A DNA stretch of 64,000 nucleotides from a bacterium (GCA_037129835.1 JBAXUE010000002.1:66334-130333), one strand, 5' to 3'. Positions 10,628-60,036 are shown, numbered from the stretch's first letter. Notes: generated from the sequence alone by a model not told the origin. A program made the numbers and translations.

Positions 10628-12157
10628 CTAGACTGTCTGTATGCCATCATGTGTTATCTCAAGTACCTTACTTGGTTTTATGGCTTCAAGAAACTCTCTG
10701 TCGTGAGTAATTACTATGTACGTTCCAGAGTATTTGTTGATAGCGGACTGAAGCTCTTCTGCGGCAGCAATATCCAAATGATTGGTTGGTTCATCAAAGA
10801 GCAGGACATTGGCTCCTTTCCACGACAAGCTAGCAAGTATCAATCTCTGTCTTTCTCCTGGGCTCATCTTTTCAGCAACTATATTATTCTTTTCATCTAG
10901 GTTAAATCTAGCGAGAACTTGTCGTAGTTTTCCTTCGGTTAAGCTTGATTTATCTGCCTCTAGTCCAGTCATGATCTTGAAATTATCTAGTAAGCTTTTA
11001 TCTGGTGCTGGAATCGATTGATCCTGGTCAATAAGGCCAAAGTGGACACTGGGACCGATGGATATATCTCCCGAAGTGGGCTTCAGTTCTTTGAGTAATA
11101 TTTTTAATAATGTAGTTTTACCTACACCATTAGCTCCCACTATCGCTATTCTATCCCCACGATTTACCTCTAGAGTCAGGGGTCCTATCTTTCGTTCTTT
11201 GCTTAGGTTTATTTCGACTTTATCTAGCTTTGCAATCGAGTCACCCAGATATTCGTGGTTATCAAACAGGAAATTTAAGTCCAACTCCTTTTGAGGCTTC
11301 GACTTATCGTCCATTCTACCGATTCGATTTCTTAAAACTTCAGTTTGACGCCCTAGTTTTCTGGTAGCAGATTCTTTCTCCCTATTGAAAGCGAGCTTAT
11401 CGTTATCCTTTTTGTTTTTTGAATTATTCGATTTTGTCGCATTTCTTTGCATTTCCCGATAAGCTTTTTCTGCTCGTTTTTTGTCTTCTAAGTAGTTCTC
11501 ATAATCAGATTTGATTTTTTCTTTTTCTAGATGTTTTTCGTTGAGGTAATCATCATAGCTCATATTGTATGTCGCCAGTCCAGTCGCGTTAGCGCTAAGT
11601 TCCAGTACTTTTGTGCTCAATTTACGGATAAAGGTTCGATCATGAGAAACAAAAATCACAGCCTTTTTGTTATTTAGTAAATACTCTTCTAAAAGTATCA
11701 GGCCTTCTTTATCGAGGTTATTTGTAGGCTCGTCGAGTAAGAGAATGTCACTACCCGCAAGCATAATAGTAGCCAGAAGAAGCTTCGTTTTTTCTCCCCC
11801 AGAAAGTGTGCCAACCTCTCTATCTAGAGATATCTCTCTAATTCCGGTCGAATCAAATACCTTTAATCTTTGAAACTCTTCGATATCCCCTATTCTTAGC
11901 TTTAGATATTCAAGAACGCTGCCCTTATAATTTGCCGGTATTTCCTGGGGGAAATAGCAGATACTTTGTTCTTTATCTTTCACTATTTCTCCCGAGTTTG
12001 CTTCTAATTCACCGGCAATTATCCGCAAGAGAGTACTTTTACCGACCCCGTTTTCACCTATTAGGGCGACCTTTTCACCCAAATCCAAAGTAAGAGAAAT
12101 ATTATTTAGTATTTCTCGACCTGCTATATTATAGTAAATATTATTTATTTTAATCAT
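10628..12157 (-). CDS. ABC-F family ATPase (tandem ABC domains, no TMD)
   Basis: Two Walker A (GENGVGKST, GANGVGKTT) and two LSGGE/MSPGE signature motifs with a charged linker. Confidence 0.85.
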   Translation of the reverse strand: MIKINNIYYNIAGREILNNISLTLDLGEKVALIGENGVGKSTLLRIIAGELEANSGEIVKDKEQSICYFPQEIPANYKGSVLEYLKLRIGDIEEFQRLKVFDSTGIREISLDREVGTLSGGEKTKLLLATIMLAGSDILLLDEPTNNLDKEGLILLEEYLLNNKKAVIFVSHDRTFIRKLSTKVLELSANATGLATYNMSYDDYLNEKHLEKEKIKSDYENYLEDKKRAEKAYREMQRNATKSNNSKNKKDNDKLAFNREKESATRKLGRQTEVLRNRIGRMDDKSKPQKELDLNFLFDNHEYLGDSIAKLDKVEINLSKERKIGPLTLEVNRGDRIAIVGANGVGKTTLLKILLKELKPTSGDISIGPSVHFGLIDQDQSIPAPDKSLLDNFKIMTGLEADKSSLTEGKLRQVLARFNLDEKNNIVAEKMSPGERQRLILASLSWKGANVLLFDEPTNHLDIAAAEELQSAINKYSGTYIVITHDREFLEAIKPSKVLEITHDGIQTV

Positions 12158-12193
12158 TTTGTGGCCTTATTCTAGGCCAAACACGGCTTATAT

Positions 12194-13444
12194 TCAAGTA
12201 GGTATCAGGGTGTTTTCTCGAAGCAACTTATCTAGTTCCCTTGCTTCATCGCTGACCTTTAAGGACATTTCATTATATCCTAGCAAGCTTAAGCCATCGA
12301 GTTCACGAATACGAGAGAGCGCGACATATCCAAGTCCATATGTAAATGCTCGGCTGAGGTCTATTTCGGCATAATCAAGAGTCATTCCTTGGCTTTTGTG
12401 TATTGTTATCGCCCATGCAAGCCGTAGCGGAATTTGTTCGATCCAGCCATCGAAGTCGATTTCTTCTATTCCCCAACGGATCGGCATCGCGATTATTTTG
12501 TTGCCCTTAAATGTTTCTACTATTGGATTGTTGGTTTCTAAATCGAAACCGATTATTGTACCCGTGGTGCCATTTACGTATCCTTTGGCAAGATTATTAA
12601 ATACGAACATTACAACGGCGCCGATCTTTAGCTTTAGTTTCTCGGGTGCGAGACAACCTTTTTTCATTTGGCCGACGATAAAGTCATCACCGCTCGACGA
12701 CATCAGATAGACTCTTTCGGCTTCATCTATCACTGCTAATCTCTGGAGATTATAGTCATCGACATTAGAATTGTGGGTAAAAAGCTTGGTGGGTATTATT
12801 CCTTCATCGAAGCCACAGTTTATTCTAGAGCTTAGTAGCTCGCAGGATTCTTCTGTCACTCTAGATTCTCTGATCTCGTTTAGAAGCCTATAAAGGTCGT
12901 TATTGTCGCTCTGTCTGTATTGTTTCTCGAGATAACATATCTGGAGGTCCATCTGTTGCCAGGCAGTGGATTTATTAACAAAATCACCACTAGATTTACC
13001 TTTCGCAACCGGAGGCAATTGGAAAAAATCTCCACAAAGCACTACTTGCAAGCCACCAAATGGCCCTAGATCCGTTCTTACTCTACGGCAAATCTCATCT
13101 ATCATGTCTAGTTGATGGGCGTGTAGCATCGATACTTCGTCTATTATCAGAACTTTTGCTTCTTGGATTCTTTTTACTGTAGATTTGTTACGACTAAAAA
13201 GCTTTTTGATATCTGCGCTAGTTATATTGTCCTTGATCCCTATCCCCGACCAAGAGTGGATGGTCACCCCGTTTAGATGTGTCGCAGCAATGCCAGTAGA
13301 GGCGGTAATGCCAACAGCAATATCGTTTTTATTTAAATACTGAATAAACTGGTTTAGTAGAAATGTTTTTCCAGTTCCTGCTTGGCCAGTTATCAGAGCA
13401 TTTTTGCCGCTTACTAATATTTCAAAAGCTTCTTCTTGGGTCAT
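12194..13444 (-). CDS. PIF1/RecD-like SF1 DNA helicase
   Basis: GQAGTGKTFLL Walker A; IIDEVSMLHAHQLD; GGLQVVLCGDFFQLPPV (PIF1 signature); C-terminal SH3-like barrel region. Confidence 0.7.
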   Translation of the reverse strand: MTQEEAFEILVSGKNALITGQAGTGKTFLLNQFIQYLNKNDIAVGITASTGIAATHLNGVTIHSWSGIGIKDNITSADIKKLFSRNKSTVKRIQEAKVLIIDEVSMLHAHQLDMIDEICRRVRTDLGPFGGLQVVLCGDFFQLPPVAKGKSSGDFVNKSTAWQQMDLQICYLEKQYRQSDNNDLYRLLNEIRESRVTEESCELLSSRINCGFDEGIIPTKLFTHNSNVDDYNLQRLAVIDEAERVYLMSSSGDDFIVGQMKKGCLAPEKLKLKIGAVVMFVFNNLAKGYVNGTTGTIIGFDLETNNPIVETFKGNKIIAMPIRWGIEEIDFDGWIEQIPLRLAWAITIHKSQGMTLDYAEIDLSRAFTYGLGYVALSRIRELDGLSLLGYNEMSLKVSDEARELDKLLRENTLIPT

Positions 13445-15718: not shown

Positions 15719-15997
15719 CTAGTTGGTAAAGCCAACGTGCTTGGTATTTTCTTCTGCTTGCTCTATCTTAACTCCAAAACCGCTTTCATACTGTTCTATA
15801 TTGGTTTTGAGTGCCTCGTAGAGCCTTTTGGTGTGTCCTGGTGACATTATTATCCTTGAGAGCAACATTCCTTGGTTCTGGAAGATATTAATGAAATCTA
15901 GGGTAAATTCTTCTCTAGTATGTCCGATCATCGCGACATTGGCATAGTTTCCCTTCAGGGTGGCGTCATCGGCTTTTATTTGTACTTGTTGTTCCAT
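15719..15997 (-). CDS. DUF3467 domain protein
   Basis: ...YANVAMIGHTREEFTLDFI...SRIIMSPGHTKRLYEALKTNIEQYE matches the DUF3467 consensus. Confidence 0.6.
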   Translation of the reverse strand: MEQQVQIKADDATLKGNYANVAMIGHTREEFTLDFINIFQNQGMLLSRIIMSPGHTKRLYEALKTNIEQYESGFGVKIEQAEENTKHVGFTN

Positions 15998-16039
15998 AGT
16001 GTCTCCTTTTCTCTCTTCGTCATTCTGAACCGAGTGAAG

Positions 16040-16100
16040 AATCTAGGATTGTATCTGGATTCCTGCTTACCGCAGGCAAGCTTCTTTCCGACTCAGGATG
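16040..16100. repeat. GC-rich hairpin repeat (GTCATCC...GGATC family), copy A, inverted relative to copy B
   Basis: Reverse complement cgtcatcctgagtcggaaagaagcttgcctgcggtaagcaggaatcc is 44/47 identical to 19806-19853. Confidence 0.75.
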
Positions 16101-16122
16101 ACGATTTGGGGGTGTTAAATTA

Positions 16123-18852
16123 TTATTTTGATACTAATTTCTCTGCTACTAGTTGGGTTATTCTCTTTGGAGGTTTATTTCTAGCTTTAAATGTTTCTTG
16201 AACCAAAAGATAGAATAAAGCGATAAATATTGCTATTGCCCAGGCAGAGAAGTTAAGCGGTGCCATGCCAGCGAATTTCTGGAGAAAAGGAACGTAAATT
16301 AATAAATTTACAAACATAAAAGACACGGCCAGTCCTATCCAGACTCTTTGTGAACCAAGTAGTTTCCATACTGGTTTTCTGGCTGACCGTATAGAAAAAG
16401 CGTTGGCATATTGGCACAGGGCCATGGTGGCATAAGTGACAGTAGTGGCCGCAATATATGTTTCGTTATTCGGAAAAGCACTCCCCCAACGCCAACCATT
16501 TAGATATCCATATATGCAAAATCCCGCCACCGAAAAAACACCCAGCATTATACCACTCCTTACGATGTAGTAGATAGTATCTGTACCAAAGAGGATATCC
16601 TTTTTGTCTCTTGGCGGTTTTGACATCACATCATCCTCTTCTATATCGCCTGCAAGTGCGAGAGCCGGAAAAGCCTCTGCGCAGAGGTCGATTAATAGTA
16701 TTTGGATAACAAAAATCGGAGGCAAGCCGATAACTAGCCCAAAAACAACAGCAGTGAACTCCGCCATATTTGCAGTAAAGACATATTTTGTTGCTTTTTT
16801 GATATTGTCATAGACGATTCTGCCCTCTTTTACCGCCCAAACAATAGAAGAAAAACTGTCGTTCAGCGAAACCATTTCTGCAGCTTCTTTGGTAACATCT
16901 GTTCCTGTCAGCCCCATCGCTACGCCAATATCCGAGGTCTTTAGAGCCGGAGCGTCATTGACGCCATCGCCTGTGACCGAGACGATATTTCCATGTGCTT
17001 GTAGTACTTTCACTAGCCGCAGCTTGTGGATTGGGTCTACCCGAGAGAATATTACATCTCCAGTTTCGATAATCTGATATAGTTCATCGTCTTTCAATTG
17101 ATTTAGTTCATTACCGTCGATGACGCGCGGATCTATGTTCAGCTTGATTCTCTTACCTACGGCTGCTGCTGTCAGGCCATAGTCGCCAGTCGCCATTATT
17201 ATCTTTATTCCAGCTTCTTTAGCGATTCTGACAGTTTCTGCTACATCTTCTCTTGGTGGATCGATAATACCAAGAAGTCCTAAGAAAATCAGGTCAGAAT
17301 CGATTGTACTGCCATCCATAGGCTTATAGGCAGAGGCTATTACTCTCAGCGCATCCTTGGAATATTCGTCATTTGTTTTTTCGATATCTTTTCTATCAGC
17401 TGTAGTTAGTTCGACTGCTTTGCCACCCTTAAGTATTTTTGTACATTTTTGTAAGATAACCGCAGGCGCCCCTTTGACGTATACCGTCTTTTCACCTTTG
17501 TAGTCGACTGCCTTGGCCATGAATTTTCGTTCTGAAGTAAAGGGTATTTCCTCTACACTTTTCGCTTCCCTCTGCATCGTATAAGTATCTAGTCCTGCCT
17601 TTTCTGCTGCCACAAGCAGAGCGATCTCGGTTGAGTCACCGATATAATCTGGTTTGTGATGATTTTTTGTATCGACTTCGGCATTATTGGAAATAGTTAC
17701 AGCTTGAAACAATATATTAGTTTCATCCAGACAGCTTCTGTTGCACAGTTTTCCTTCACGGGTGATTTCCCCGTCGAGACTATATCCCACGCCCTTTATA
17801 TGATAATTTTCGTTATTAAAGTAAATCTCTTTTACGGTCATCTGGTTCTTGGTTAGGGTGCCTGTTTTGTCAGTAATGATGTAGTTTGCCTCACCTAGGG
17901 TTTCCACTGCCGAAAGTCTGCGGATAGCAGCCTTTCTTCTGGTCATTTTTTGGATGCCGATCGCAAGTGCGATAGACACCGTGGCTGGTAAACCCTCAGG
18001 GACAAGAGAAGATGCTACTCCGATGGCAAAACGAAAAGATTCTAGTGCGTCAAAGTGACCCTTTGCTACTGTATCGACTACGAGCAGGATGAGAACGACC
18101 CAGAAGGTTGCTTTGGCTACAGTCTTGGCAATCCGGTCTATCTCTATTTGTAGCGGTGATTTTGATACCTTTTGGGTCGAGGTTATTTTGGCAATTTTAC
18201 CAAAGCTAGTTTCCATTCCGGTGGATACCACCACACCGATACCGTTACCAGAGATTACGTCAGTTCCCATAAATACAGAGCCTGTTACATCGACTACGTT
18301 TCTCTCGTTCTCCTCTGTTACCATCGCTACTTTGGATTGTGTTTCAGATTCTCCTGTAAGTGCTGCATCATTCGTTTCTAACTCATTTGCAGATATTAGC
18401 CGGATGTCTGCTGGTATCTTCATTCCCTCGGAAAGAACAATAATGTCACCGGGTACGATATCCATGGCGTCGATAGTCTGGCGGTCATTGTCTCTGATAA
18501 CGGTTGCAGACTGAGCGACAAATTTCTTAAGAGCGTCTATCGCTTTATCAGCTTTGTATTCTTGGAAAAAACCAATAGTGCTATTGGCAATCACAACTAA
18601 AAAGATGACAATTGCATCTTTAGGTGCTCCTAGAATATATGCGAGACCGGCGGCCGTCAGAAGAACTATCGCTAGAAGGTCAGTGAATTGGACAAGAAAT
18701 TTGACTATATATGGAGTTCGTTTTTGCTGTACTAGCTTATTGTGGCCGTATTTATTGAGACGCGTTGTAACTTCTGCGCTCGAAAGACCTTTGTCAGTCG
18801 TCTTTAGAGTATCTAATACTTTAGTAATATCGTCATAGAGCAATGAATTCAT
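16123..18852 (-). CDS. P-type cation-transporting ATPase (P2-type, Ca2+/Mg2+-like)
   Basis: DKTGTLT phosphorylation motif, TGDGVNDAPAL hinge, N-terminal cation ATPase domain, about 10 TM. Confidence 0.9.
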   Translation of the reverse strand: MNSLLYDDITKVLDTLKTTDKGLSSAEVTTRLNKYGHNKLVQQKRTPYIVKFLVQFTDLLAIVLLTAAGLAYILGAPKDAIVIFLVVIANSTIGFFQEYKADKAIDALKKFVAQSATVIRDNDRQTIDAMDIVPGDIIVLSEGMKIPADIRLISANELETNDAALTGESETQSKVAMVTEENERNVVDVTGSVFMGTDVISGNGIGVVVSTGMETSFGKIAKITSTQKVSKSPLQIEIDRIAKTVAKATFWVVLILLVVDTVAKGHFDALESFRFAIGVASSLVPEGLPATVSIALAIGIQKMTRRKAAIRRLSAVETLGEANYIITDKTGTLTKNQMTVKEIYFNNENYHIKGVGYSLDGEITREGKLCNRSCLDETNILFQAVTISNNAEVDTKNHHKPDYIGDSTEIALLVAAEKAGLDTYTMQREAKSVEEIPFTSERKFMAKAVDYKGEKTVYVKGAPAVILQKCTKILKGGKAVELTTADRKDIEKTNDEYSKDALRVIASAYKPMDGSTIDSDLIFLGLLGIIDPPREDVAETVRIAKEAGIKIIMATGDYGLTAAAVGKRIKLNIDPRVIDGNELNQLKDDELYQIIETGDVIFSRVDPIHKLRLVKVLQAHGNIVSVTGDGVNDAPALKTSDIGVAMGLTGTDVTKEAAEMVSLNDSFSSIVWAVKEGRIVYDNIKKATKYVFTANMAEFTAVVFGLVIGLPPIFVIQILLIDLCAEAFPALALAGDIEEDDVMSKPPRDKKDILFGTDTIYYIVRSGIMLGVFSVAGFCIYGYLNGWRWGSAFPNNETYIAATTVTYATMALCQYANAFSIRSARKPVWKLLGSQRVWIGLAVSFMFVNLLIYVPFLQKFAGMAPLNFSAWAIAIFIALFYLLVQETFKARNKPPKRITQLVAEKLVSK

Positions 18853-18967
18853 AAATATATTTTATGCTATATATAGATAATAATGAAGAGAAATAAATAC
18901 AAATGGAGAAGGTCCGCGCCGGGAAGACGCTTTATATAGCTACCTTCTCGTTGCGGACCTCTTGGAC

Positions 18968-19342
18968 CTAGTCTTCGACCTCATCGATCCCGAGCATCGC
19001 TCTCGCGACTTCGATATCGGGTGCCAGGTCGAAGTTGTTGGTGTACTTCACCAACTTCTTAGAGACCTTCTCGTCCTCGGGGACTACGATCACAAACGGA
19101 ATGTGATCATTCATCAGGTACCGACCAAAGCTGTAGATACGGCCGATAGCCGCGCTACAAAGCTTGGTGACCATTGCGAGGTCGAGAATGACTCCGGCCT
19201 TGCGGGCCTTTATCAGAGTCTTGTCGAACTCGAGTCGGAGAACCGGCTCGACACTGTCGTCGAGATTTCCTCCGAGCTTCAGGATCACGGCCTTGTGGCC
19301 GTTACCTGCTTCGAACTTTTCGATACTGTGTACACAATGCAT
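18968..19342 (-). CDS. STAS-domain protein (SpoIIAA-like anti-sigma-factor antagonist fold)
   Basis: About 120 aa; alternating beta/alpha pattern with the conserved ...LDL..V..I.S..IG... region; sits in a locally GC-richer segment. Confidence 0.45.
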   Translation of the reverse strand: MHCVHSIEKFEAGNGHKAVILKLGGNLDDSVEPVLRLEFDKTLIKARKAGVILDLAMVTKLCSAAIGRIYSFGRYLMNDHIPFVIVVPEDEKVSKKLVKYTNNFDLAPDIEVARAMLGIDEVED

Positions 19343-19351
19343 ATATCCCCC

Positions 19352-19768
19352 TCAGTCGGTTTCTAGTATTGCCGGGTTTTCGGAAAAGAACCATGAACCC
19401 CACAGCTCTCTCTTGACACCTACTTGCAGCGAATGTACCCACATTCCCCCTATGGGGATTTCGAAAGAGGGAAAGAAATCGAGTTCGATCTCTCCCTGCC
19501 AAACCACTTTCTCACGGTCAACGATATCGTAGATGACAAGTGAGTCACCGGTCTGGAGCAAGTGCAGGCCATCATAGCCGCCTTGCCTTCCTTCTTCTTC
19601 GAAGGCCCAGAAACCTCCTTCGGTTCCGGTCTCGAAGTAGAAATGTAACGTACCCACAAGTTTCATGTGGCTCACCTCCCAAACGATGTTATCGTGATTG
19701 AGACAAAGAGGATTATACAACATAATGAGTGTTCTGTAAAGATAAACATATACTCCCCAGTCATCCAT
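19352..19768 (-). CDS. Hypothetical protein (true start may be the internal Met at about 19665)
   Basis: ORF only; N-terminal part overlaps repeat-derived sequence. Confidence 0.3.
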   Translation of the reverse strand: MDDWGVYVYLYRTLIMLYNPLCLNHDNIVWEVSHMKLVGTLHFYFETGTEGGFWAFEEEGRQGGYDGLHLLQTGDSLVIYDIVDREKVVWQGEIELDFFPSFEIPIGGMWVHSLQVGVKRELWGSWFFSENPAILETD

Positions 19769-19774
19769 GGCCCG

Positions 19775-19860
19775 CTTTCGTCATCCTTGCGAACGCGAGG
19801 GTCTCTTTTGGCAACGTCATCCTGAGTCGAAACGAAGCTTGCCTGCGGTAAGCAGGGATC
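19775..19860. repeat. Tandem GC-rich hairpin repeats (two units), copy B
   Basis: gtcatccttgcgaacgcgagggtctc + gtcatcctgagtcgaaacgaagcttgcctgcggtaagcagggatcc. Confidence 0.75.
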
Positions 19861-20227
19861 CATGTCCACTCTCCTTATCGTTCGAATTCTAATGAGAACT
19901 ACAGATACAGGTTATATGTAGTTTTCATAGGATCTACGTAATCCAACCATCAGTTCGAAAAGAAAGAGAGTAAAGTAACGAAGTTATAATAAATAACTTC
20001 CGGTATCGGCTTGTTGTTATTTATTATATTTGAGCTACTGCAACGAATGATACTTTAAAGAATCTGTTAGGTTGGGCTTTTTGCACCACTTTTATTAAAA
20101 AAGTGGCATATATTATAATATAACGTTTAAAAGATATTCGCTAAAGTCGTAATTGCTCGACCTCGAAGATAGTCGAGTACACGGTACCAAGGCGATTTTT
20201 CATTGGGATTAACGCTTAAATATACCG

Positions 20228-20335
20228 CCCCTTTGTCATCCCTGGTCGCACTTGTCCTCCAGTAGCTTGTTAGCGAAGTAGGAACCCCAGTCTGCCCGAG
20301 CCGTACGCTCGTGTCGGCCAGGGGGATCTCTCTAG
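20228..20335. repeat. GC-rich hairpin repeat, long-loop variant (tgtcatccctggtcgc...cggccagggggatctc)
   Basis: Shares the termini of the family with a longer internal segment. Confidence 0.5.
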
Positions 20336-21254: not shown

Positions 21255-21275
21255 AATTACTTTTCCTCTCCTGTG

Positions 21276-21310
21276 TCATCCCTGGCCACAAACCAGGGAT
21301 CTCCTGCTTA
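21276..21310. repeat. GC-rich hairpin repeat tgtcatccctggccacaaaccagggatctc
   Basis: Near-identical inverted copy at 34745-34775. Confidence 0.7.
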
Positions 21311-21369
21311 TTGTTCGAAGATCGGCAGTAGCCGAAGCGAGAACTAAAAAATAGCCTCTTGGTACTAGT

Positions 21370-22625: not shown

Positions 22626-24428
22626 TTACTTCTTATCGAGTATTTTTACATTTTTTTTAGCATAGTCAGCAGAGAGCATTTTGATCCCCGTATCTTTAAA
22701 AGAAACTCGAATTTCATCATCAGATATTCCCTCTACTTCGCCTATTCCGAAATCAGGATGACTGATAAGATCCCCAACTTCCAAGAAAGTTTCCGACTCT
22801 TCATCGATGTGTTCTACCACAGGTTCTTCGTCTGACCTATCTTCTACTCCTTTAGTATTTCCACTAAATATCGCTCGAAGTATTTTTTCTTCTGACGACT
22901 GAATAGCTTTTTCCTCTTCTACAGAAACAACTGTTTTTTCTACTTCTGTAACAGGTTTCTGGAAGTCATCTCCACCAGGAAGCTCTAGTGCCTTTATCTC
23001 AGGTAGGGCTATGTGACCACCAATATCACCATACATTCCTACAGTATTTGTGAGTACTCTGCTAAGCTGCTTTTCTCTCTCACACCATATCTTTTCGAAA
23101 GCGTTTCGCTCTTTGCGTATACCACTTTCCATAGCTCCAAAAGCCTCTACTATGGCCTCTACCCTTTGTTTAAACTCATTGCCCGTAAGGTATGTATATA
23201 GGTAGTCCATCTTGTCGTTCTTGTTGACTGCCAAGGCCTTCTCTCTATAGACATCCACCAGGCCTTTTCTCAGCACTGTAGCGAGTGCAATAGCATATTT
23301 TAACTCACATACCCAAATCTTTTCTATTTGTACGAATCCATGAGCATCTCCAGGCATAGCTGCTGTTACTATCACTCCGATATCTGCCTTTATAGCCCTC
23401 ATATCTTCTTTTAACTTATCTACCCAACCTGCACTCCAAGACTTGGTTTGCTTGGATTCCCAAGCTATTTTGCCACACAGAGCACCGGCTTTGTTTTGTA
23501 CTAGCTGTACCACATCAGCACCGTTTACACCCTTTGGTACTGGCGCGATAGCGTCAAAAGGAAAAGCGTCGGTTAGCACTTGTTCTAGCTCGAGCTCCTG
23601 AACTTCGCCTTGGGTTTGCATGGAGCCTTGCTCCAGCTTCCTAGCTAGATCGTCCTTTGCCCTGCTGACATTCGATAGCTTCATCTCTAGCTCAGCAATC
23701 TTTTTGTGCTGTTGCTCTTCGGCCTTTCTACCCGCTTCTTCTTGAATCTTCTGACGCTCCTCGTCTAGCTGTCTCATCTTCTCTAGCTCAAAGCTCTGCT
23801 TGTCTTCCTCTAGGGTAATCTTTTGCTTTCGAAGTTCCAGCTCTTTTTCCTGAGCTTTACGGAGCTTCTCGTCCTTTTCATTCATTTGCTCTTGGAAACT
23901 ACGTTTCTCTAGCTCCAGCTCTTTTTGAGTTTCGTCGGCTAGCTCTTTTTTGAGCTCTAGGCGATAGGCCTCAGTCTTCTCGGCGTATTTCTTCTCGACT
24001 TCGAGCTCTATCTTGATTTTTTCCTCTTCTAGCCTAGTCTTTTCTTTTCTGAGCTCTATTTCACTCTCTTGAGCTTTTTCGAGCTTTTCATTTTTTTCCA
24101 AAATTAACTGCTCAAAATTATGTTTTTCTAGCTCTAGCTCTTTTTTTGCCTCTATTGATAATTCTTTTTTGAGTTCTAGCCGATAATTTTCTATCTTTTC
24201 GGCATACTTTATCTCAGCCTCTAGTTCTATCTTGGTTTTCTCTTTTTCTATCTCAGATTCTCTGGTGGCCAGAAGCCTATTAGTCTGCTCTAGCTCATCT
24301 TTTAGCTTTTGCTGTTCACTACTTAGCTCTTTGCGAACCTTTAGTTCCATCTGCTCTTTTAGGATGTCGTCGATGTCTATATCCCAACCGCATTTTGGGC
24401 ACTTAATGTTTTGTTCTGAATCTGTCAT
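22626..24428 (-). CDS. DUF2130-family coiled-coil protein with N-terminal zinc ribbon and an internally duplicated coiled-coil block
   Basis: CPKCGWDIDID zinc ribbon; long E/K/L heptad region with a near-perfect roughly 45-aa duplication; conserved DUF2130 core QGEVQELELEQVLTDAF...GADVVQ...WESKQTKSWSAGWVDKLKEDM...YLTGNEFKQRVEAI. Confidence 0.55.
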   Translation of the reverse strand: MTDSEQNIKCPKCGWDIDIDDILKEQMELKVRKELSSEQQKLKDELEQTNRLLATRESEIEKEKTKIELEAEIKYAEKIENYRLELKKELSIEAKKELELEKHNFEQLILEKNEKLEKAQESEIELRKEKTRLEEEKIKIELEVEKKYAEKTEAYRLELKKELADETQKELELEKRSFQEQMNEKDEKLRKAQEKELELRKQKITLEEDKQSFELEKMRQLDEERQKIQEEAGRKAEEQQHKKIAELEMKLSNVSRAKDDLARKLEQGSMQTQGEVQELELEQVLTDAFPFDAIAPVPKGVNGADVVQLVQNKAGALCGKIAWESKQTKSWSAGWVDKLKEDMRAIKADIGVIVTAAMPGDAHGFVQIEKIWVCELKYAIALATVLRKGLVDVYREKALAVNKNDKMDYLYTYLTGNEFKQRVEAIVEAFGAMESGIRKERNAFEKIWCEREKQLSRVLTNTVGMYGDIGGHIALPEIKALELPGGDDFQKPVTEVEKTVVSVEEEKAIQSSEEKILRAIFSGNTKGVEDRSDEEPVVEHIDEESETFLEVGDLISHPDFGIGEVEGISDDEIRVSFKDTGIKMLSADYAKKNVKILDKK

Positions 24429-24514
24429 CTTATCTCCTTATTCTTTTTAGCATTTATTAATAGCTCCTGCATTATACACCCCAATAATGCCAAAAGTGCC
24501 CATTTACGAAAAAA

Positions 24515-24757
24515 TTAATCAAAAAGTATAAAAGGATTCATCTCCGCCGGTGTTTTCCAGCGTATTTTATACTTCTTCCTAAGTATTTCTTTTTTCTTAT
24601 GCCAAAAGGTATGGCAATATCCCAAATCACCTTCTTTGATTGGCGAATCTTTCAACGCATCCGTGACTTCATTATTGATTTTTGCGAAAATATCACGATA
24701 CCTCGGGTCTCGCTCTATTGGATCGTTAGCTATGTCGTCATCGTACATATTAATCAT
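24515..24757 (-). CDS. Hypothetical protein (80 aa)
   Basis: ORF only. Confidence 0.3.
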   Translation of the reverse strand: MINMYDDDIANDPIERDPRYRDIFAKINNEVTDALKDSPIKEGDLGYCHTFWHKKKEILRKKYKIRWKTPAEMNPFILFD

Positions 24758-24768
24758 CTTTGTTCTTC

Positions 24769-25110
24769 TTATTCCGGAGCTTGAATTGGCTTCGCTTCTC
24801 GTCTTTTCTTTATGTAGCTAACTAGGTTAATTATATCTACAACGAATGACCCAAGCAAAATCACTACGAAAAAGAATAGACCAAGTGCATAAGAGATGGC
24901 ATCACCCCAGGCCTGGTTTGGTAATGTGCGTATATAGGTTCCGAATAGAAAAAATCCGACGGCTACTACGACGCTAGTTATCTTTAGACCTATTGATAGA
25001 TCTCCGAGTTTTTTCCCGGTCTTGATATAGATAATGATCGAAGGTGCGACCATAGCCGCGATAGCAAGCAAGAGTATGAATAGCCCAGTAATTAGACCCA
25101 TAAGCACCAC
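24769..25110 (-). CDS. Small membrane protein (3 predicted TM)
   Basis: Hydrophobic segments; ORF only. Confidence 0.35.
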   Translation of the reverse strand: MVLMGLITGLFILLLAIAAMVAPSIIIYIKTGKKLGDLSIGLKITSVVVAVGFFLFGTYIRTLPNQAWGDAISYALGLFFFVVILLGSFVVDIINLVSYIKKRREAKPIQAPE

Positions 25111-25146
25111 CCTCCAGACGCGATACGTAACGATTTTGTTATGATA

Positions 25147-26121
25147 TTACTTTTGTACATGTTCCTCTCCTTTTGCATGAATTATATTTTCCATATTATC
25201 ATACAGATAAACAAAATATTTTTCTATTTCATTCATTTTATTTGGTAACATATTTTTTGTAAGAGCTGCCGATTCTGCAAAAAACTCTTCGAAATATTCT
25301 GCATATTCAAGAATAAAGTCGTCAGTGAACTCTCCCTTAATTATACATTCATCATAGAGTGGTTTGATCGCCTTTACTCTGGTCTTTAGATATGGGGTAA
25401 AGGGATTATCTATTAGATATCCCATCCCTGGTGGGTTGTAATACATATTGCCTTCGTCATCTTTGATAAAGAAGAACTGTCCGAATTCGGTATTTGCTAG
25501 TATTCCTCGTTCTAGTTGAGCGCCAGTCCCGTTTTCTGTAGCGTAAAGATTTTTAAAATAAAAATGTCCGATTTCATGTGCAAGTAGATATTCGAGTAGC
25601 GCCTCTTCTTTGTTATCTGCTTCTTTTACTACATCTGGCATCTCGTATGGATAGTCATAGGTATCAAATAGCTTTATATCGCCAAAGTGCTCGCTTTCTC
25701 TGTCGGAAATGGCATGTGCCCGTACCCTCAACCACTCATCACCCTCAGGTAGCTCGTTGTTTGCTTTGGCTTTTTCGTATTCTTCCCTGTTATAAAGCTT
25801 CTTTTCATTCTCTATTCCTGGGGTGTAGACATACATTATTACATTATCATAGATTATTTTTGATATACCGACTTTTTTAAAATCCTCTAATTCGTAATTT
25901 CTCGCGATGAACTCCAAGGCGCTCTCTCCTAGATTCTTGTTTTCTTCAAATCCTTCGAAACCGAGATATGCTCGAAAATCATCTAGCTTCTCCTTTGATA
26001 TTTCATCATGAGTTTCCGTATAGACACTACTAGTAGGCGCACTTTCTTTAAGTTTTGTTCTTTCCCACAGCTTACTAGCCTCACGCTCAGCAGGTCCTAT
26101 TGGTAATGGTATATGTTCCAC
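25147..26121 (-). CDS. Hypothetical protein with HExxH zincin-like motif
   Basis: LLAHEIGHFYF; acidic, no TM. Confidence 0.35.
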   Translation of the reverse strand: MEHIPLPIGPAEREASKLWERTKLKESAPTSSVYTETHDEISKEKLDDFRAYLGFEGFEENKNLGESALEFIARNYELEDFKKVGISKIIYDNVIMYVYTPGIENEKKLYNREEYEKAKANNELPEGDEWLRVRAHAISDRESEHFGDIKLFDTYDYPYEMPDVVKEADNKEEALLEYLLAHEIGHFYFKNLYATENGTGAQLERGILANTEFGQFFFIKDDEGNMYYNPPGMGYLIDNPFTPYLKTRVKAIKPLYDECIIKGEFTDDFILEYAEYFEEFFAESAALTKNMLPNKMNEIEKYFVYLYDNMENIIHAKGEEHVQK

Positions 26122-26140
26122 TATTATCCTTTCTTTGTAT

Positions 26141-26812
26141 TTATTTCTCTTTCGTCACCAAGAACGGAAAAACTCTGTTCATTTCATCGTTCCGAAGGAT
26201 AAATGCCGCCTCGAGGAAAGTATACAGTAAATCTTTTGTATTTTTCAGTACATCAGCACTACAAAAGACGACGAAATCAGCTTCGTTTATCTCTGAGGGC
26301 GATTGGATGTGGATCTTGTTTCTCAAGTTCTTGAGCTGTTTCAAATCATTTCGATAAAAGGCAAATGACAGCCCGAATGTCTGCTCCTGCGCAGACTTAT
26401 AGAGTAAGCTCTTAAAATCATGGATATCGTCATAGCTGGCACCTGTTTCTTTGTGCTGGATATACAGAATAGACTCTATTATTAGTGCCGATATCAGAAC
26501 AAATGTCTTCACATTCTGCCCATAGAGAGAGCTGGTGAGATATAGCTGCTTGGTGCATTCGTCTAGATAGTGAAGATATTGGAGATTATAGGCGATGTTA
26601 CTAAAAGCAGCATACTTTGGGTCATCATCAGAAAATTCGTAATCTATCAGCCGTGGGAATATAGTACTGCGATAGAAATCTATTGAGTTTGGCAGAAACT
26701 TGTTCGAACCCTCCTCTTTGGAACAAACCCGACACAAGATATTAGGCTTGTCTGGATTGTACAAGTCCTGCTTTACAAAGCCTGAATTGCTGTGTTGTTC
26801 TGTTTTAGTCAT
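26141..26812 (-). CDS. Hypothetical protein
   Basis: ORF only, 223 aa. Confidence 0.3.
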   Translation of the reverse strand: MTKTEQHSNSGFVKQDLYNPDKPNILCRVCSKEEGSNKFLPNSIDFYRSTIFPRLIDYEFSDDDPKYAAFSNIAYNLQYLHYLDECTKQLYLTSSLYGQNVKTFVLISALIIESILYIQHKETGASYDDIHDFKSLLYKSAQEQTFGLSFAFYRNDLKQLKNLRNKIHIQSPSEINEADFVVFCSADVLKNTKDLLYTFLEAAFILRNDEMNRVFPFLVTKEK

Positions 26813-26873
26813 TTTTCCCTTTTATAAAAGAATACATTGTTCTATCTTACTTTGTAAAAAATTATTAACTAAA

Positions 26874-28229
26874 CTAGTCTCTGCCACCCCTTTGTCTATT
26901 ACAATATCGGTGGACTAATCTGGCGTTTGATAGCTTGGTTTCTCCACCTCGCCAGTAAAACTCAATATGATCAACCTCAGAATCGTCTAAAACACGTATT
27001 TTTTGACCACATATTTTACAGGTTGAATCAGTGTCAAAAAGTTGCTTTTTCTCGTCGTGTGAATAGTTTCTTGTCTGTGACTTGGAATAATCTACGATTT
27101 TCCTCAAAGATTCTAGCCATTTCTCAAATCTGTATTGCACATTTTCTGGCTTATCTGTTGATGACTTCAAGGAATCTTCAAATTTCTTGACAGCTGTCAT
27201 TAAGTGTAAAAGTTCTTCGCGAATAGAATCAAGGTGAGGGATAATTTCGTTTTTTTGATACATCGTGAAACCCCACATTACGATGTCAAATAAGCCTTTG
27301 TTTATTTTTGTATTTTCCCACTTTCCGTTTGAGTCAGATTCTTCGCCTACAACAAACCTACGAAAAGCATTGTCACCAAATACTGAGCGAGTTAGGTCAA
27401 CAGATTTTTTAAAAACCTCACGAAGTTCTTTTGCTTTTTCTTCATTTAGATTTTGGTTATTATGCATTTCTTGATTTAGAAACTGTCTCATGGGTGCTTT
27501 GTATTTTAAGTATGAGTTATTATAAAAAGCGAAAAATCGTAATAAAAGCTCTCTATCAATCATTCTTATGGACATAGCTGGTGATTTTAATAATGTTTGA
27601 TATTCTTTATTTTCGGCAAGCTCGATTAGTAAGTCGTTATATTTTCCACGGTAAATACAGTTTCTGAGTTCCTGGTCGTTCAGCTTCACTGCGCCAGTAT
27701 TTAGTCTTTCGAAAACCTCAAATCTAACATTGATATCAGAATCCTTTTTGATTCTGATAAATGGTATAAGATAAGAATCAACTTTTCGCTGTGTTATTTT
27801 GTCTAGTTCCTTAAATGATTTCCTGTTTAGTCCTGTCAAAACCTTTAATCCCGAAAGGGCAAATTTTTCGTGCTTGTCTTGAAAGTACCCGTCCTTAAAA
27901 GAAAAGATAGAAATTAGTCTTTGTTGCCCGTCTATTACTGATTGGGTACCGTCATCTTCTTCGGCAGTGTATATTACTGGTATCGGGACTCCCAAGAGAA
28001 TAGATTCTATCAGTCTACTAGCTTTGCTTTTATCCCAGACATATCCTCTTTGAAAGTATGGTCTTACATCAAGTTCCCCTGCCTTGTAATCAGAATATAA
28101 GTCTTTTATGGCTCTACTGGGGTTGTCAAAGGTAATTCTTCTTTCATCCTCAGGTATATCAAAAACCAGTGGTTCGTTGTCATTATTGTCTTCTTCAAGA
28201 ATAACGTCATTATTATCTATTACCGTCAT
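26874..28229 (-). CDS. DUF262 (ParB/Srx-like NTPase) + C-terminal HNH nuclease protein, GmrSD/BrxU-like (copy 1)
   Basis: DGQQRLISIF (DUF262 DGQQR motif); C-terminal CKICGQK...DHIEFYWRGGETKLSNARLVHRYCN HNH. Confidence 0.7.
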   Translation of the reverse strand: MTVIDNNDVILEEDNNDNEPLVFDIPEDERRITFDNPSRAIKDLYSDYKAGELDVRPYFQRGYVWDKSKASRLIESILLGVPIPVIYTAEEDDGTQSVIDGQQRLISIFSFKDGYFQDKHEKFALSGLKVLTGLNRKSFKELDKITQRKVDSYLIPFIRIKKDSDINVRFEVFERLNTGAVKLNDQELRNCIYRGKYNDLLIELAENKEYQTLLKSPAMSIRMIDRELLLRFFAFYNNSYLKYKAPMRQFLNQEMHNNQNLNEEKAKELREVFKKSVDLTRSVFGDNAFRRFVVGEESDSNGKWENTKINKGLFDIVMWGFTMYQKNEIIPHLDSIREELLHLMTAVKKFEDSLKSSTDKPENVQYRFEKWLESLRKIVDYSKSQTRNYSHDEKKQLFDTDSTCKICGQKIRVLDDSEVDHIEFYWRGGETKLSNARLVHRYCNRQRGGRD

Positions 28230-28285
28230 AATTCTCCTTTACTTTGATCTATCGTTTTTGCTTATCAAGTTTTTTCATTGGTTCG

Positions 28286-29449
28286 CTATTTATTTCCCTT
28301 GGCACGGTTATGTGTTTTACAAAGCATCTCACAGTTATTGATATCTGTGGCGCCACCTTTACTCCATGCTGTAACATGGTCAGCATCCATTTCGGTAAGA
28401 CTCCAGATTTTTGTCTTGTTGGCGTCGTGACCGATTACGCAATTCGGACAATTTGAAATGCCTTTAGATTTAGCGGTCGTAGTTTGTGACGAATATACCG
28501 CTTTTTTAGTTGCCTCATCAAAAACACGAACTTCAAGTAGTTTCTTTTCATTAGACCCACCTAGAATATATTCAAATATTCCCTTTCGATTTTTTATGTA
28601 TGGGTCTCCATAAAGCTTTTGTACGGCCAATGACACTTTTGCAGGATCATAGGCTTTTGTATGAAATTTTTTATAAAGTCGACCCCAATCCAGGCCTCGC
28701 ATTTCACTTTCAACATCTATAAATACACCAGAAACCCATTCTATTACGCTTTTAAAATATGCTTTTAACTCAGTGATATTGTTATCAAAGCGGTGACGAC
28801 TCATATATTCGCCGTTATTACCACAACTAATCCAGTCTAAGGCTCTCTCTAGAAATTCCTGTCTGTTGGCACTGCCAGTTACATAAGCACTCCATTTTTG
28901 AATGTTGGCATTTTGACTATTACTGAATTCCTCTTTACCAAGTGTGACAAATGGACCAGAATAAACCGCATTTAATAGTTCTTGATTATTTAGCGGTACA
29001 CCGGCAATGTTTATGGTTTTGAACCACTCTTTTATTTCACTTTCTTCGCCCTCGCATTCGTATATAAGAAGCTCAGCGTTCATGATTTTAGCCTGCTTAT
29101 CTGAAGCAATTCCACTGAAGTATTGTTCCATGCCGTTTTCGTCTTTTATGGCAAATTTGTTATAAACGAATCGTCCGATACTAGTGATACGTTGTTGTCC
29201 GTCCAATACTTCTAAGTTGTCAGTGCTCACTTTGTTAAAATATATTAAGCCCAGCGGATAGTCTTTGAGTAATGAGTCAATGACCGCGACGTCTTTTTTA
29301 CCATCAGCATAGATGTAGTTACGTTGATACTCTGGCTGAATAGTGAGCTTGCCAGAGAGTCCGAACAAACCCTTGCCTTCATGCTGGTTATACACAAATC
29401 CTTCACATATATTTCTTACGGTTATGTTAGTTACTAAAGTAGTTTTCAT
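28286..29449 (-). CDS. DUF262 (ParB/Srx-like) + C-terminal HNH nuclease protein (copy 2, diverged paralogue)
   Basis: [14 protein letters not shown]; C-terminal CPNC...[29 protein letters not shown]. Confidence 0.7.
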
Positions 29450-30648
29450 GCTATACCTTTCTTGTGTTTGATTAAAATCCTAGCGAATGGAACCACAACA
29501 GTTTCATCTTTTATCATATATAAATCACCGTTCACCGTTCCTCTTTTTTGCACTTCTTTCCGATACTTTTTATGCTCAGGTTTATACGGTTTGACTCCGA
29601 TGGATAAGCCCAGGTTTGCTATTCCCAAACCAATAATATCAAATTGTTCAGGAGAATATTTGTCAAGGAAACTAATTGGCACGCCCATAATACCCTTAAA
29701 GTCTCCAGGAATATGTTTAACGAAAGGAACTTCTATTGCATTAAAATTATCATAATTATCAAAAGATCTTTTAGTGCCAAATTTTATAACGTCTGACAAT
29801 TTCATTAATGGTAAGAATTCGTGAAGCCTTCCGTGGTCAAGATTAGTAAACCAGCGAACACCTTGGACTCTCGTGATGTAAACTTTCTTACCATTTTCAT
29901 CCGTCCGTATTTCGCGTACTTGCTCTAGATTGGCAATATCTTCTGGTATTTCATAAAACATTGCTCCACCATTCACTTTATGATTATTGCCAAGCCAAAT
30001 CTTGTTATCCTTAATTAATGGAAAGACTTCTTTATAAGTAATAGCGTTCATACTACCAATTATTAAGAACTTTTTTTTGTACTCAATAAGTTGTTTTAAG
30101 TACTCGCGGAACAAACTGAAAGGCGGGTTAGTTACCACTATATCAGCCTGCTTTAGTAGCTCAACACACTCGTTGCTCCGAAAATCTCCGGCTGCGTATT
30201 TATCATCGCCAAGTAAAAGCGAATAAGCATTATTGTCATGTTCTAAAAGCCATTTCACATCATTAAGGTTGGTTATGCCATCTTTATTAAGGTCTGAAAC
30301 CTCATTGATCTCAATTTTAAATGCTTTTTTATTTTTTCGATTAGAAAGTGTCTTATTTTTACCCATTTCTTCGAAACCCGGTATTTGTATCTGTGTTTGT
30401 ACAATCGGCGAACCAACGTAGCTTGTCGTTATCAACTTTTTTAAGCCAAATTCCTTAAATTTATTTGCAAAATACTTGAAGAAATTACTTTCAAATGGGT
30501 CATCGCAGTTGCAATAGACTATCTTGCCGCGAAAAACATCAGGATCGTAATCAATGTAGGCTTGGATTTCCTTCTGAATATCTTGATATTGAGTATAAAA
30601 CTCGTCGTTTTTAGTCTTTTTTGCGTTATGTAAATTTTTTTGTGCCAT
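29446..30648 (-). CDS. N6-adenine DNA methyltransferase, M.EcoRI family (PF13651-like)
   Basis: N-terminus ...[15 protein letters not shown]...VYCNCDDP closely resembles M.EcoRI; NPPF catalytic motif ([10 protein letters not shown]); 4-nt overlap with the downstream gene. Confidence 0.7.
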
Positions 30649-30660
30649 TTAAAACCTTAT

Positions 30661-31128
30661 TTATTTTTCAAAGCAAATTGGATTAAATATCTTTTCAGGA
30701 AAATCGTTATCTCCAATTTTATATTTTAATTCACCGTTTGTTCCATGTACTGAATATTTTTCTCGATTGCGCTTTGACACAGAAATTGATTTGACTCCGG
30801 ACTGGCTAGGCCTTAACAACCTCTCAATTTCGTCATAGTTTAAGCAACAAACTCCTGCATCGTAACATACAAGTAGGACAAAAACCTTCTCAAACTTTGA
30901 TTTTAGCTCTAATAGTTTTTCGAGATGATTCTCCGAAAATGTAAAGCTCCAGGGGATTAACCGACTCTCAGTATATTTAACATATAAGCCACTTTCTCTG
31001 AGCTGAGAGAGAATCTTAAAACTAGAATTGTCATCATCAACATAATCACTAACACCAAGACATCTTTGGTCTTGAATTATTTTTAGTAAAGCTGCCCCGT
31101 AATATAGTTGATATTTAAAATTTGCCAT
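30661..31128 (-). CDS. Hypothetical 155-aa protein within the R-M/defence operon (candidate nuclease or specificity partner)
   Basis: ORF between the Z1 ATPase and the methyltransferase with 6-12 nt spacers; no recognisable motif. Confidence 0.35.
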   Translation of the reverse strand: MANFKYQLYYGAALLKIIQDQRCLGVSDYVDDDNSSFKILSQLRESGLYVKYTESRLIPWSFTFSENHLEKLLELKSKFEKVFVLLVCYDAGVCCLNYDEIERLLRPSQSGVKSISVSKRNREKYSVHGTNGELKYKIGDNDFPEKIFNPICFEK

Positions 31129-33941: not shown

Positions 33942-34823
33942 CTATTTCAAATCACGTAATTCCTCTATCACTCCGACTTTATTAAGAATGGGTATCATTT
34001 CGGAGCTACCTTCATAATTACTATAGTAGAAAGTTCCACCGATTTCGTACCATCTTTTAAATGGTTTCCCTTTCTCTGGAGTGAACAAAAAATGTGTCCA
34101 AAGTCTGTAGTCTAGCATGTCGATGTGATTTGTCTCGACATGTAGAAATGAGTGCGGCTTCAACACGCCTAGTGAGTTCTCTGCTATCCCCATCGGTGCT
34201 GGCGGGTCATCATCTTGAGGTATATTACCCCCTACAATATCCTCGACACTGGTATAGTGATTACTTGAATCATTTATAATATAGGCGTCATAGAAGCCAG
34301 ACTCTTTTTCGTCAAAGACGATTGCAATGTAGAGTCCCTTGTTATGTTTTCTGATTTTGTCCCACTCTTTCTGTTCTTCTATCTCTGGACATATCATCTT
34401 GGCACTGCATTTAGGGCATGGATGACTAGCTGGCCAGATGTGATACTTTTCGTCATGACAATATGGGCATAGATTCACTAGAGACTGAAAGTATTTCTCT
34501 GGATCCCACGGCACATCCCAAGCCTTGGTAGTGACTTCTACTAATATCTTTCTTCTATCACAGACACAAGTCCGCGTTTCCTGATCGGCACAGCGGCCAA
34601 AACCAGCAATAGTCTTTTTTTGATAATTACACTTTGTGCATTTGTATAACTTGTGTGTCATATTTGCAATATACGCTCGTTTTGTGCCTGGGGCAAGACC
34701 CAGGAGGTCATCCTTACGAAAGTAAGGATGACCTCCGGAGGGTAAGAAAGAGATCCCTGGGTTTGTGACCAGGGATGACAACGGGTGTTCCCACGAAAAA
34801 TAACTCAGTCCGCAGACCGACAC
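33942..34823 (-). CDS. Cys-rich zinc-finger protein (true start probably Met at 34661; upstream part is repeat-derived)
   Basis: Multiple CxxC pairs (CTKCNY...CADQ, CPYCHDEK, CPKCSAK); first 54 codons overlap a GC-rich hairpin repeat. Confidence 0.4.
   Translation of the reverse strand: MSVCGLSYFSWEHPLSSLVTNPGISFLPSGGHPYFRKDDLLGLAPGTKRAYIANMTHKLYKCTKCNYQKKTIAGFGRCADQETRTCVCDRRKILVEVTTKAWDVPWDPEKYFQSLVNLCPYCHDEKYHIWPASHPCPKCSAKMICPEIEEQKEWDKIRKHNKGLYIAIVFDEKESGFYDAYIINDSSNHYTSVEDIVGGNIPQDDDPPAPMGIAENSLGVLKPHSFLHVETNHIDMLDYRLWTHFLFTPEKGKPFKRWYEIGGTFYYSNYEGSSEMIPILNKVGVIEELRDLK
34738..34790. repeat. GC-rich hairpin repeat (inverted copy of the 21276-21310 unit plus partial unit)
   Basis: Reverse complement tgtcatccctggtcacaaacccagggatctc. 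Confidence 0.7.
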
Positions 34824-59938: not shown

Positions 59939-60036
59939 GGTTTATGTACTTTCCCCCGTCATGCTGAATTTATTTCAGTATCCCGAGATCCTGAATCGAG
60001 TTCAGGAAGACGCAAAGAGGTGTGCGACGAGTGTAG

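Follow-up and report, generated by a model that had tools for sequence, protein, structure and literature searches.

The stretch of bacterial DNA analysed here (64,000 nucleotides (nt), GCA_037129835.1 JBAXUE010000002.1:66334-130333; hereafter, the window) carries two inverted copies of a GC-rich hairpin repeat on either side of an operon that encodes a P-type ATPase, a STAS-like protein and a small protein, p104, raising the question of whether the repeats are the ends of a mobile cassette, mark a recombination hotspot, or simply happen to lie on both sides of a transcription unit. An earlier reading of the sequence alone (the sequence-only reading) had proposed one of the first two, namely a cassette flanked by miniature inverted-repeat transposable elements (MITEs) or repetitive extragenic palindromes (REPs), or a hotspot. 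The comparisons described below point to the third, in that the two copies are very probably paralogues of a dispersed, CGTC-type REP family and their bracketing of the operon incidental.

The inverted copies and the hairpin family to which they belong

A repeat search returned, as the top-ranking inverted repeat of the whole window, two 57-nt arms at 16047-16103 and 19815-19871 that are 88% complementary with a spacing of 3711 nt. Three positions differ between the 48-nt cores when the left one (16056-16103) is reverse-complemented and compared with the right one (19815-19862; 93.75% over 48 nt by BLAST), and the window has exactly two instances of the 20-mer GCTTGCCTGCGGTAAGCAGG, whereas 100 shuffles have none. 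The sequence-only reading had described a 47-nt inverted element with three mismatches at 16047-16097 and 19806-19853; the repeat and its mismatch count hold, but the coordinates were off by about 9 nt. The 57-nt form corresponds to a canonical unit, GTCATCCTGAGTCGAAACGAAG^GATCC, with the 19-nt CTTGCCTGCGGTAAGCAGG put in at ^, inside the loop, and the CGTC tags of the two copies point inward.

Both copies are members of a hairpin family of which the window has at least 10 short units, in both orientations, at six sites between genes (Table 1). In a unit, an unpaired tag, (C/T)GTC, is followed by a hairpin with a loop and an 8-bp stem that opens with A-T and T-A pairs, and the 3′ arm by a tail of 3 nt. 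The tag is CGTC in U1-U4, U9 and U10 and in units L003a/b and L031b/c of other contigs (L numbers), TGTC in U5, U6 and U8, and GGTC in U7, while the tail is CCA in U2, U4 and L031b, CTC in most others, and CCC, CTA or GAC in single units. Among 12 distinct short units with 8-bp stems, 95 of the 96 stem positions are paired, position 1 being A-T in 11 of the 12 and position 2 being T-A in 10 and T-G in two; nine have loops of 4 or 5 nt and three of 7-8 nt, and U2, U4 and U5 are long-loop variants. A strict scan for this grammar gave 14 matches in the window compared to 3.9 ± 2.0 in dinucleotide shuffles, and a looser version (GTC plus 7/8 pairs) was dropped, with 87 matches compared to 70.6 ± 7.6. 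The window belongs to the 372-kb contig k141_20016 of ENA ERZ27300174, with NCBI proteins MEI62666xx; the adjoining 18.7 kb of this contig contains three further units, all in one gap, and no further copy of the 19-nt hairpin, so that the 83 kb read in all holds 13 units at seven sites. The window sites are intergenic in six of six cases, and the intergenic share of the window is 9.2%.

The inner four stem positions show two to four types of Watson-Crick pair and are paired in 48 of 48 instances; when the arms were permuted 10,000 times, 29.8 were paired on average and 42 at most. The units had been chosen by a rule requiring pairing. Since the stems covary, the hairpin appears to be under selection. 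Folding gave z-scores of -2.7 to -3.1 for short units and -3.1 to -4.4 for the two tag-outside, or head-to-head (HH), dimers at 16018-16103 and 59957-60013, the former at -32.7/-36 kcal/mol (z -3.1/-4.2). Short units and dimers fold better than shuffles, and lone 57-nt units do not. No Rfam family matched the units or anything else in the window, and no tRNA or tmRNA was found as an integration site. Behind three units, U4, U6 and one in L031, a module made up of CTTAT(T/C)GTTCGAA, a small covarying hairpin and GAGAACTA is present at 19863-19915, 21304-21350 and L031:331-385, respectively.

This architecture is that of the CGTC-tagged REP super-family (PMC3733652; Di Nocera, De Gregorio & Rocco 2013, BMC Genomics 14:522), which has four numbered families and includes dRS3 of Neisseria and RPE-4 and RPE-6 of Rickettsia. 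The published members have an unpaired CGTC tag, often TGTC and with CCTC as a variant, stems of 8-9 bp with complementary AT at positions 1-2, loops of 4-5 nt with variants, and 3-nt tails that are mostly CCA; HH dimers predominate, the head-to-tail (HT) arrangement is negligible, and copy number is moderate to high, from tens to thousands per genome, in five phyla that do not include Patescibacteria (PMC3733652). They are extragenic, lie near the 3′ end of the upstream open-reading frame (ORF), are plausibly transcribed and have no dedicated transposase (PMC3733652). The window units share the tag, the 8-bp AT-opening stem, the loops and, in both 57-nt copies, the CCA tail; they include two HH dimers that can each fold as one long hairpin, and they are extragenic, near upstream 3′ ends and without a linked transposase. 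They differ in the host phylum, here Patescibacteria, of the candidate phyla radiation (CPR), in the tandem HT arrangement of the right-hand pair U3/U4 (19779-19862), in the 19-nt GC-rich hairpin within the loop of U2 and U4, and in the conserved TTGTTCGAA...GAGAACTA module that trails some of them.

Placement of the units and their possible role

The left dimer (16018-16103) begins 19 nt past the ATPase stop codon, ends about 20 nt ahead of the DUF3467 start codon and is 100% conserved in all haplotypes. U4, at the other end, lies 75-150 nt upstream of the -35 box of the ATPase operon, and the genes around the repeat are all on the minus strand. We propose that CGTC-type REPs colonised the scarce spacers (roughly 9% non-coding) of a compact genome, mostly just past stop codons. 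With units piling up in this small non-coding share, it takes little for a transcription unit to end up between two of them, and the two 57-nt copies would be paralogues of one sub-type whose inverted orientation around the operon is incidental. The hairpins would form in single-stranded DNA or read-through mRNA, and any role of the units would be as transcript-end or stability elements, which is plausible; they would spread by means of a trans-acting enzyme, and they would not move the ATPase operon.

A tentative alternative, which we consider somewhat unlikely, is that the hairpins are kept as cis-acting signals, such as sites of mRNA 3′-end protection or processing, insulators or protein-binding sites, and that the pair marks the boundaries of the operon. 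This is consistent with the extragenic position of units 19 nt past the ATPase stop codon and 1-2 nt past the DUF2103 stop codon, with the covarying stems and the complete conservation of the dimer, and with the location of published REPs, mostly downstream of ORFs and plausibly transcribed (PMC3733652). On the other hand, units are found pointing either way, no T-run follows them, downstream of the ATPase gene the coding strand has neither a T-run nor a terminator-like site, and the right copy is dispensable in contig L004. A signalling role is moreover compatible with the selfish-repeat explanation and does not exclude it.

Strain comparison of the bracketed segment

In all strain-level contigs (L001-L004, L013, L023, L030, L037-L042) the operon is found at one and the same site. 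The sequence-only reading had suggested a check for relatives that lack the cassette here, and had named synteny in all relatives as grounds for rejecting its proposal; at strain level the segment is syntenic. No contig contains an inverted version of the segment and no second location of it was found; there is no target-site duplication, as no direct repeat flanks 16047 or 19871, and a Pfam scan of about 60 window proteins (ORFs of at least 80 amino acids (aa), 64 kb) detected no transposase, integrase or Y1_Tnp domain. Haplotype L004 has wholly different sequence upstream of the -35 box, where another repeat is found and the right copy is missing, and nonetheless retains the operon. In L003-type strains 19916-20331 is replaced by a 27-nt short-loop unit, which stands in for U5, and by a ~170-nt element whose window copy lies at 34783-34932. 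These replacements indicate that, irrespective of the genes, the upstream spacer changes as small repeats are gained and lost. An AT-rich 320-nt spacer at 19916-20233 is found only in the window-type strain and contains small hairpins, e.g. CCACTTTTATTAAAAAAGTGG, and no convincing ORF.

More distant relatives were also compared. ATPase homologues of 71-74% aa identity lie in unrelated contexts in other CPR genomes, homologues of the flanking DUF2779 protein (65-71% aa) have only the adjacent small gene kept beside them, and in a scan of genome contigs the nearest species representatives of that protein were 36-50% identical with no shared synteny. Because distant relatives (65-74% aa) have lost synteny on every side, flanking genes included, a test for an empty site among them is uninformative. 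The nearest named relatives of the flanking gene are metagenome-assembled genomes (MAGs) of Saccharibacteria/Patescibacteria, a relationship that places the host among the Patescibacteria/CPR bacteria. The 90%-cluster mates of the window's PIF1 helicase and ABC-F protein (10628-13444; P0262, P0264) are annotated in an 'Actinomycetota bacterium' MAG, on a contig of 2.3 kb, which is probably mis-binned CPR DNA and could conceivably be a hint at the host.

The locus recombines between strains, as the hotspot proposal implied. The window differs from L003 by 1 nt over 15861-19312 and from L004 by 2 nt over 16017-19342, within flanks that are 3-10% diverged (~90-98% identical on the DUF3467/DUF2779 side, ~90% at DUF2103), and the junction at 15860/15861 was seen again in the independent JGI/ENA contigs L040-L042. 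The p104 gene is hyper-divergent between strains (57-83% nt identity, 70% and 55% aa; window compared to L003:1475-1786 and L004:186-500) and adjoins the 124-aa STAS-like gene, which is near-identical across the same strains. In L037 an L004-type p104 and the near-identical STAS-like gene are joined to an ATPase with 77% identity to that of the window over the N-terminal 91 residues, L023 has seven intergenic single-nucleotide polymorphisms at 18854-18937 in common with L037, and L038 carries a divergent ATPase 3′ end and then, over 16149-15861 with the REP dimer included, matches the window exactly. To judge from these contigs, which are 609-1644 nt long and cover its two ends only, a second, divergent ATPase allele lies at the same locus, between the STAS-like gene and the REP dimer. 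The 90% cluster of the ATPase has one member, compared to two to four for those of neighbouring genes. Positions 1-16 of L038 are the Nextera mosaic-end adapter (TGTGTATAAGAGACAG), an assembly contamination in ERZ27299992.

Tract and allele boundaries (~19313-19343, 18854-18940, 16150, 16016 and 15860) fall at gene ends, and none is located at the right repeat (19815-19871). Each junction is on contiguous sequence of short metagenome contigs; long-range linkage is not so supported. For the identical tract, a Poisson test that assumes a uniform rate gave p about 1e-41; it was set aside, since the background divergence is itself mosaic. At 12.2-14.3 kb, where PIF1 and a 211-aa gene lie, the window has ~5 mismatches in 2.1 kb compared to L036 within flanks that are ~5% diverged (96.9% identical overall), and there is no REP in this tract, indicating that recombination is not special to the repeat-bracketed segment. 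Frequent homologous recombination thus appears to be a property of the population rather than of the repeat-bounded segment, and the locus, although recombination-active, is so in common with its neighbourhood; the right copy is no boundary.

It is nevertheless conceivable that the dimer and the STAS-like gene serve as recombination anchors, a homology block or structure-prone break site that promotes the exchange of whole ATPase alleles by homologous recombination among diverged strains living together, and can be likened to the 'minimal mobile elements' of Neisseria. We regard this as improbable. The near-identical tracts inside diverged flanks, the recurrence of the 15860/15861 junction in L040-L042, the divergent allele between the STAS-like gene (L037, L023) and the identical dimer block 15861-16149 (L038), and the single-member ATPase cluster would all fit. 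However, the mosaic tract at 12.2-14.3 kb shows that REPs are not needed, the boundaries vary by haplotype (15860 vs 16016; 19313 vs 19343) as in ordinary homologous recombination, the right 57-nt copy marks no boundary, and short metagenome contigs, one of which (L038) opens with an adapter, could be chimeric over shared sequence.

That p104, the STAS-like gene and the ATPase gene transpose or are excised together as one composite, MITE-flanked element with the two copies at its ends is scarcely credible and largely refuted at strain level. In its favour, the copies are inverted, 88% identical and the only two of their subfamily in 83 kb, ATPase homologues occur in unrelated CPR contexts and the right part has an anomalous GC content. 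Against it, target-site duplications are lacking and no transposase or integrase gene was detected among the proteins scanned in the 64 kb; the CGTC tags face inward, so that the copies are not arranged like the terminal inverted repeats of a single element; the operon persists in L004, where the right copy is missing; every strain contig has the segment in the same place; and the exchange boundaries lie away from the copies. The differing contexts are uninformative, given that the flanking genes also lose synteny. From the description of a MITE/REP-flanked segment, the REP-type hairpin element is retained and the MITE-flanked cassette is not.

Several observations weigh against incidental bracketing by dispersed REPs. 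Four of the six window sites crowd into 16.0-21.3 kb, a real local clustering, and this operon is flanked by both members of the 57-nt subfamily seen in the 83 kb read, the portion of the genome on which its copy number rests. A third 57-nt instance, on the CPR-like contig L031 (the same insert in another unit, GTCATTCCAAACTCGATTTGG^GATCC), is in a different context and possibly from another strain or species. Isolated 57-nt units have folding z-scores of -0.1 to -0.8, not better than shuffles, the pairing rule introduces an ascertainment bias into the covariation, and a role of the units at the RNA level is inferred. The left edge of the near-identical tract in L004 lies 2 nt outside the REP dimer, which could hint at an involvement of the dimer in recombination.

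Occurrence of the units and of the 19-nt hairpin in other DNA

At least 120 IMG/VR contigs contain the canonical unit GTCATYCTGAGCGNAGCGAAGRATCT. GC content ranges from 0.32 to 0.70 in the 80 that were analysed, where the Y/R positions of the unit covary 93:1, and across 120 contigs the unit is depleted in long ORFs (37% compared to 78% for random positions). It is also present in unannotated plasmid spacers of Planktothrix, Calothrix, Oscillatoria and Granulicella; the Planktothrix spacer has three tandem HH dimers, with a unit, GTCATTCTGAGTGAAACGAAGAATCTC, near the core of the window's 57-nt copy. The GIY-YIG protein encoded beside the 34.7-kb cluster was considered as a mobilising enzyme and rejected, as it had no relatives in the 80 viral loci scanned of the at least 120 with the canonical unit.

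A metagenome scan with the 20-mer core, which missed the JGI contigs L040 and L042, both holding the left copy, and is therefore no census, returned the right-copy locus in strains, one more locus that is CPR-like, and contigs of high GC content that are unrelated. An exact match to the 20-mer of the nested hairpin is present in such unrelated contigs with a GC content of 0.55-0.6 (among L012-L032, especially L017 and L021), and in two of them it is nested in GTCAT...ATCTC units, e.g. GTCATGCTGA[GCTTGCCTGCGGTAAGCAGG]CGAAGCGAAGCATCTC. In L025 it adjoins the end of a 16S rRNA gene. The ~170-nt stretch found in the window at 34783-34932, downstream of the GIY-YIG gene (34977-35546, minus strand), has counterparts of 82-96% identity in other strains, where they lie upstream of the p104 promoter (L003:1058-1226, L013, L023 and L004:25-97). 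The L003 copy has an extra 19-nt insert, CCCGCCTGCGGCAGGCAGG, between CTTGAAC and TTAACTCC, and this one presence/absence pair, L003 compared to the window at 34.89 kb and L004, suggests that the 19-nt module may be mobile. A broader proposal, to which we give little credence, combines this with the recombination data: the REP dimer and the STAS-like gene would be fixed anchors for swaps of whole ATPase alleles (~77% aa) among CPR strains that live together, and the 19-nt hairpin would be a micro-element that inserts on its own and that unrelated high-GC soil bacteria carry in exactly the same sequence.

Comparison with other repeat systems

The window dimers at 16018-16103 and 59957-60013 are of the REPIN type known from systems of REPINs and REP-associated tyrosine transposases (RAYTs; PMC3116915, PMC3337134), although classical REPINs have GTAG-type heads and a single-copy RAYT, and no Y1 domain is found among the scanned window proteins. 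According to a preprint, REPIN-RAYT systems are passed on for the most part vertically within lineages (bioRxiv 10.1101/2022.05.22.493013), unlike the canonical unit described here, which spans contigs of GC 0.32-0.70 and several phyla. The cassettes of integrons resemble the locus in that one or more genes are bracketed by imperfect palindromes of ~57 nt (attC sites). An integron cassette was ruled out, as the repeats lack GTTRRRY/RYYYAAC core sites and no IntI integrase is present among the scanned window proteins; three genes with a promoter of their own lie between the copies, and the repeats also occur between ordinary housekeeping genes. Small dispersed repeats of cyanobacteria (SDRs), reportedly described by Elhai et al. 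in 2008, are said to be hairpin-forming repeats of ~20-27 nt that are sometimes nested in other repeats, and by that description they resemble the 19-nt insert CNNGCCTGCGGNANGCAGG in U2/U4, L031, the 170-nt element of L003 and unrelated soil contigs.

Genes of the operon and neighbouring features

Pfam agrees with the P-type ATPase that the sequence-only reading had placed between the copies, and the hypothetical gene reported there is p104; a 138-aa ORF at this position is an upstream extension of the 104-aa p104. The p104 family has 536 representative matches and no Pfam family, and a Pfam search of large relatives gave no functional hint. The presumed STAS-domain gene is present, but its assignment is weaker than the sequence-only reading had put it: the 124-aa protein had no Pfam match even at E<=10 and no homologue among 5.8e9 proteins, and an AlphaFold2 model made without an alignment was unusable (pLDDT 36). 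Its three weak matches are collinear and all to STAS/anti-sigma-antagonist proteins, two of them to structures (PDB 4hyl_A, E=0.086; 7ch8_K, E=0.52) and one to NCBIfam TIGR00377 (E=1.7e-4, 21 bits, below the cut-off of 53), so that the protein is weakly suggested to be STAS-like, of the SpoIIAA/STAS type. The right part of the segment is GC-richer than its surroundings, as had been noted: no other 900-nt stretch of the window is as GC-rich as 18901-19800 (0.509 compared to a mean of 0.391, sd 0.034), and the GC content at third codon positions (GC3) is 0.70 in the STAS-like gene, 0.55 in p104 and ~0.36-0.51 in flanking genes. The promoter-like site TTTACA-17-TATAAT is the best in 15.6-21.5 kb and, to judge from its match and position (19740-19712), marks the opening of the p104/STAS-like/ATPase transcription unit.

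Table 1 Features of the ATPase operon and units of the hairpin family in the window
Feature	Position	Strand	Description
P2A-type cation P-type ATPase, 909 aa	16123..18852	-	Pfam; best NCBIfam matches PMR1/SERCA-type Ca-ATPases, under equivalog cut-offs
STAS-like orphan gene, 124 aa	18968..19342	-	GC3 0.70; near-identical in all haplotypes
p104, 104 aa	19352..19666	-	Widespread uncharacterised domain family
Promoter-like site TTTACA-17-TATAAT	19712..19740	-	11/12; conserved in all strain variants
U1	16018..16045	+	CGTCATTCTGAACCGAGTGAAGAATCTA; partner of U2 in the 86-nt HH dimer 16018-16103
U2, left 48-nt copy	16056..16103	-	CGTC-tagged REP unit CGTCATCCTGAGTCGGAAAGAAG[CTTGCCTGCGGTAAGCAGG]AATCCA with nested 19-nt hairpin; arm reaches 16047
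U3, short unit	19779..19806	+	CGTC ATCCTTGC GAAC GCGAGGGT CTC (= CGTCATCCTTGCGAACGCGAGGGTCTC); tandem (HT) with U4; z -2.7
U4, right 48-nt copy	19815..19862	+	CGTCATCCTGAGTCGAAACGAAG[CTTGCCTGCGGTAAGCAGG]GATCCA; arm reaches 19871
Nested 19-nt GC-rich hairpin	19838..19856	+	CTTGCCTGCGGTAAGCAGG; second copy 16062-16080 (-)
Associated module	19863..19915	+	..CTTATCGTTCGAA-(small hairpin)-GAGAACTA, directly after U4
U5, long-loop unit	20234..20331	+	TGTCATCCCTGG...CCAGGGGGATCTC; 1-2 nt after DUF2103 stop codon
U6	21274..21303	+	TGTC ATCCCTGG CCACAAA CCAGGGAT CTC; between HTH gene and p212 gene; z -2.95
U7 and U8	34706..34780		U7 palindromic, 34707-34732; U8 34750-34779 (-); gap downstream of GIY-YIG gene
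U9 and U10, second HH dimer	59957..60013		U9 59957-59984; U10 59985-60013 (-); between EngA/Der and Pth genes; z -4.4

The repeat-rich 16-21 kb looks as if it adjoins a variable island. A defence-type run at 22626-33018 comprises DUF2130, two GmrSD_N/HNH genes, an EcoRI-type adenine methyltransferase and a Z1/ResIII helicase. A separate family of 30-nt direct repeats (TTTTGTGC...GCAAG, plus strand) is found at 33045-33074, 34668-34697 and 35545-35574, directly upstream of three minus-strand genes; read on the coding strand, it is a hairpin with an AGGAG ribosome-binding site behind it.

Implications

The comparison of strains removes a false lead, as the ATPase operon is most unlikely to be a repeat-bounded mobile cassette. 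CGTC-tagged REPs, known in 2013 from five phyla and still without a known transposase, populate a Patescibacteria genome too, and the canonical unit spans metagenomic contigs of very different GC content as well as cyanobacterial and acidobacterial plasmids. If the 19-nt hairpin were the independently inserting micro-element considered above, with the REP dimer and the STAS-like gene as anchors, this would amount to an undescribed and very broadly distributed way of spreading tiny hairpins. For the organism itself, the mosaic tracts suggest a lineage with a small genome that recombines frequently, in which the ATPase and p104 appear as strongly divergent alleles at one locus.

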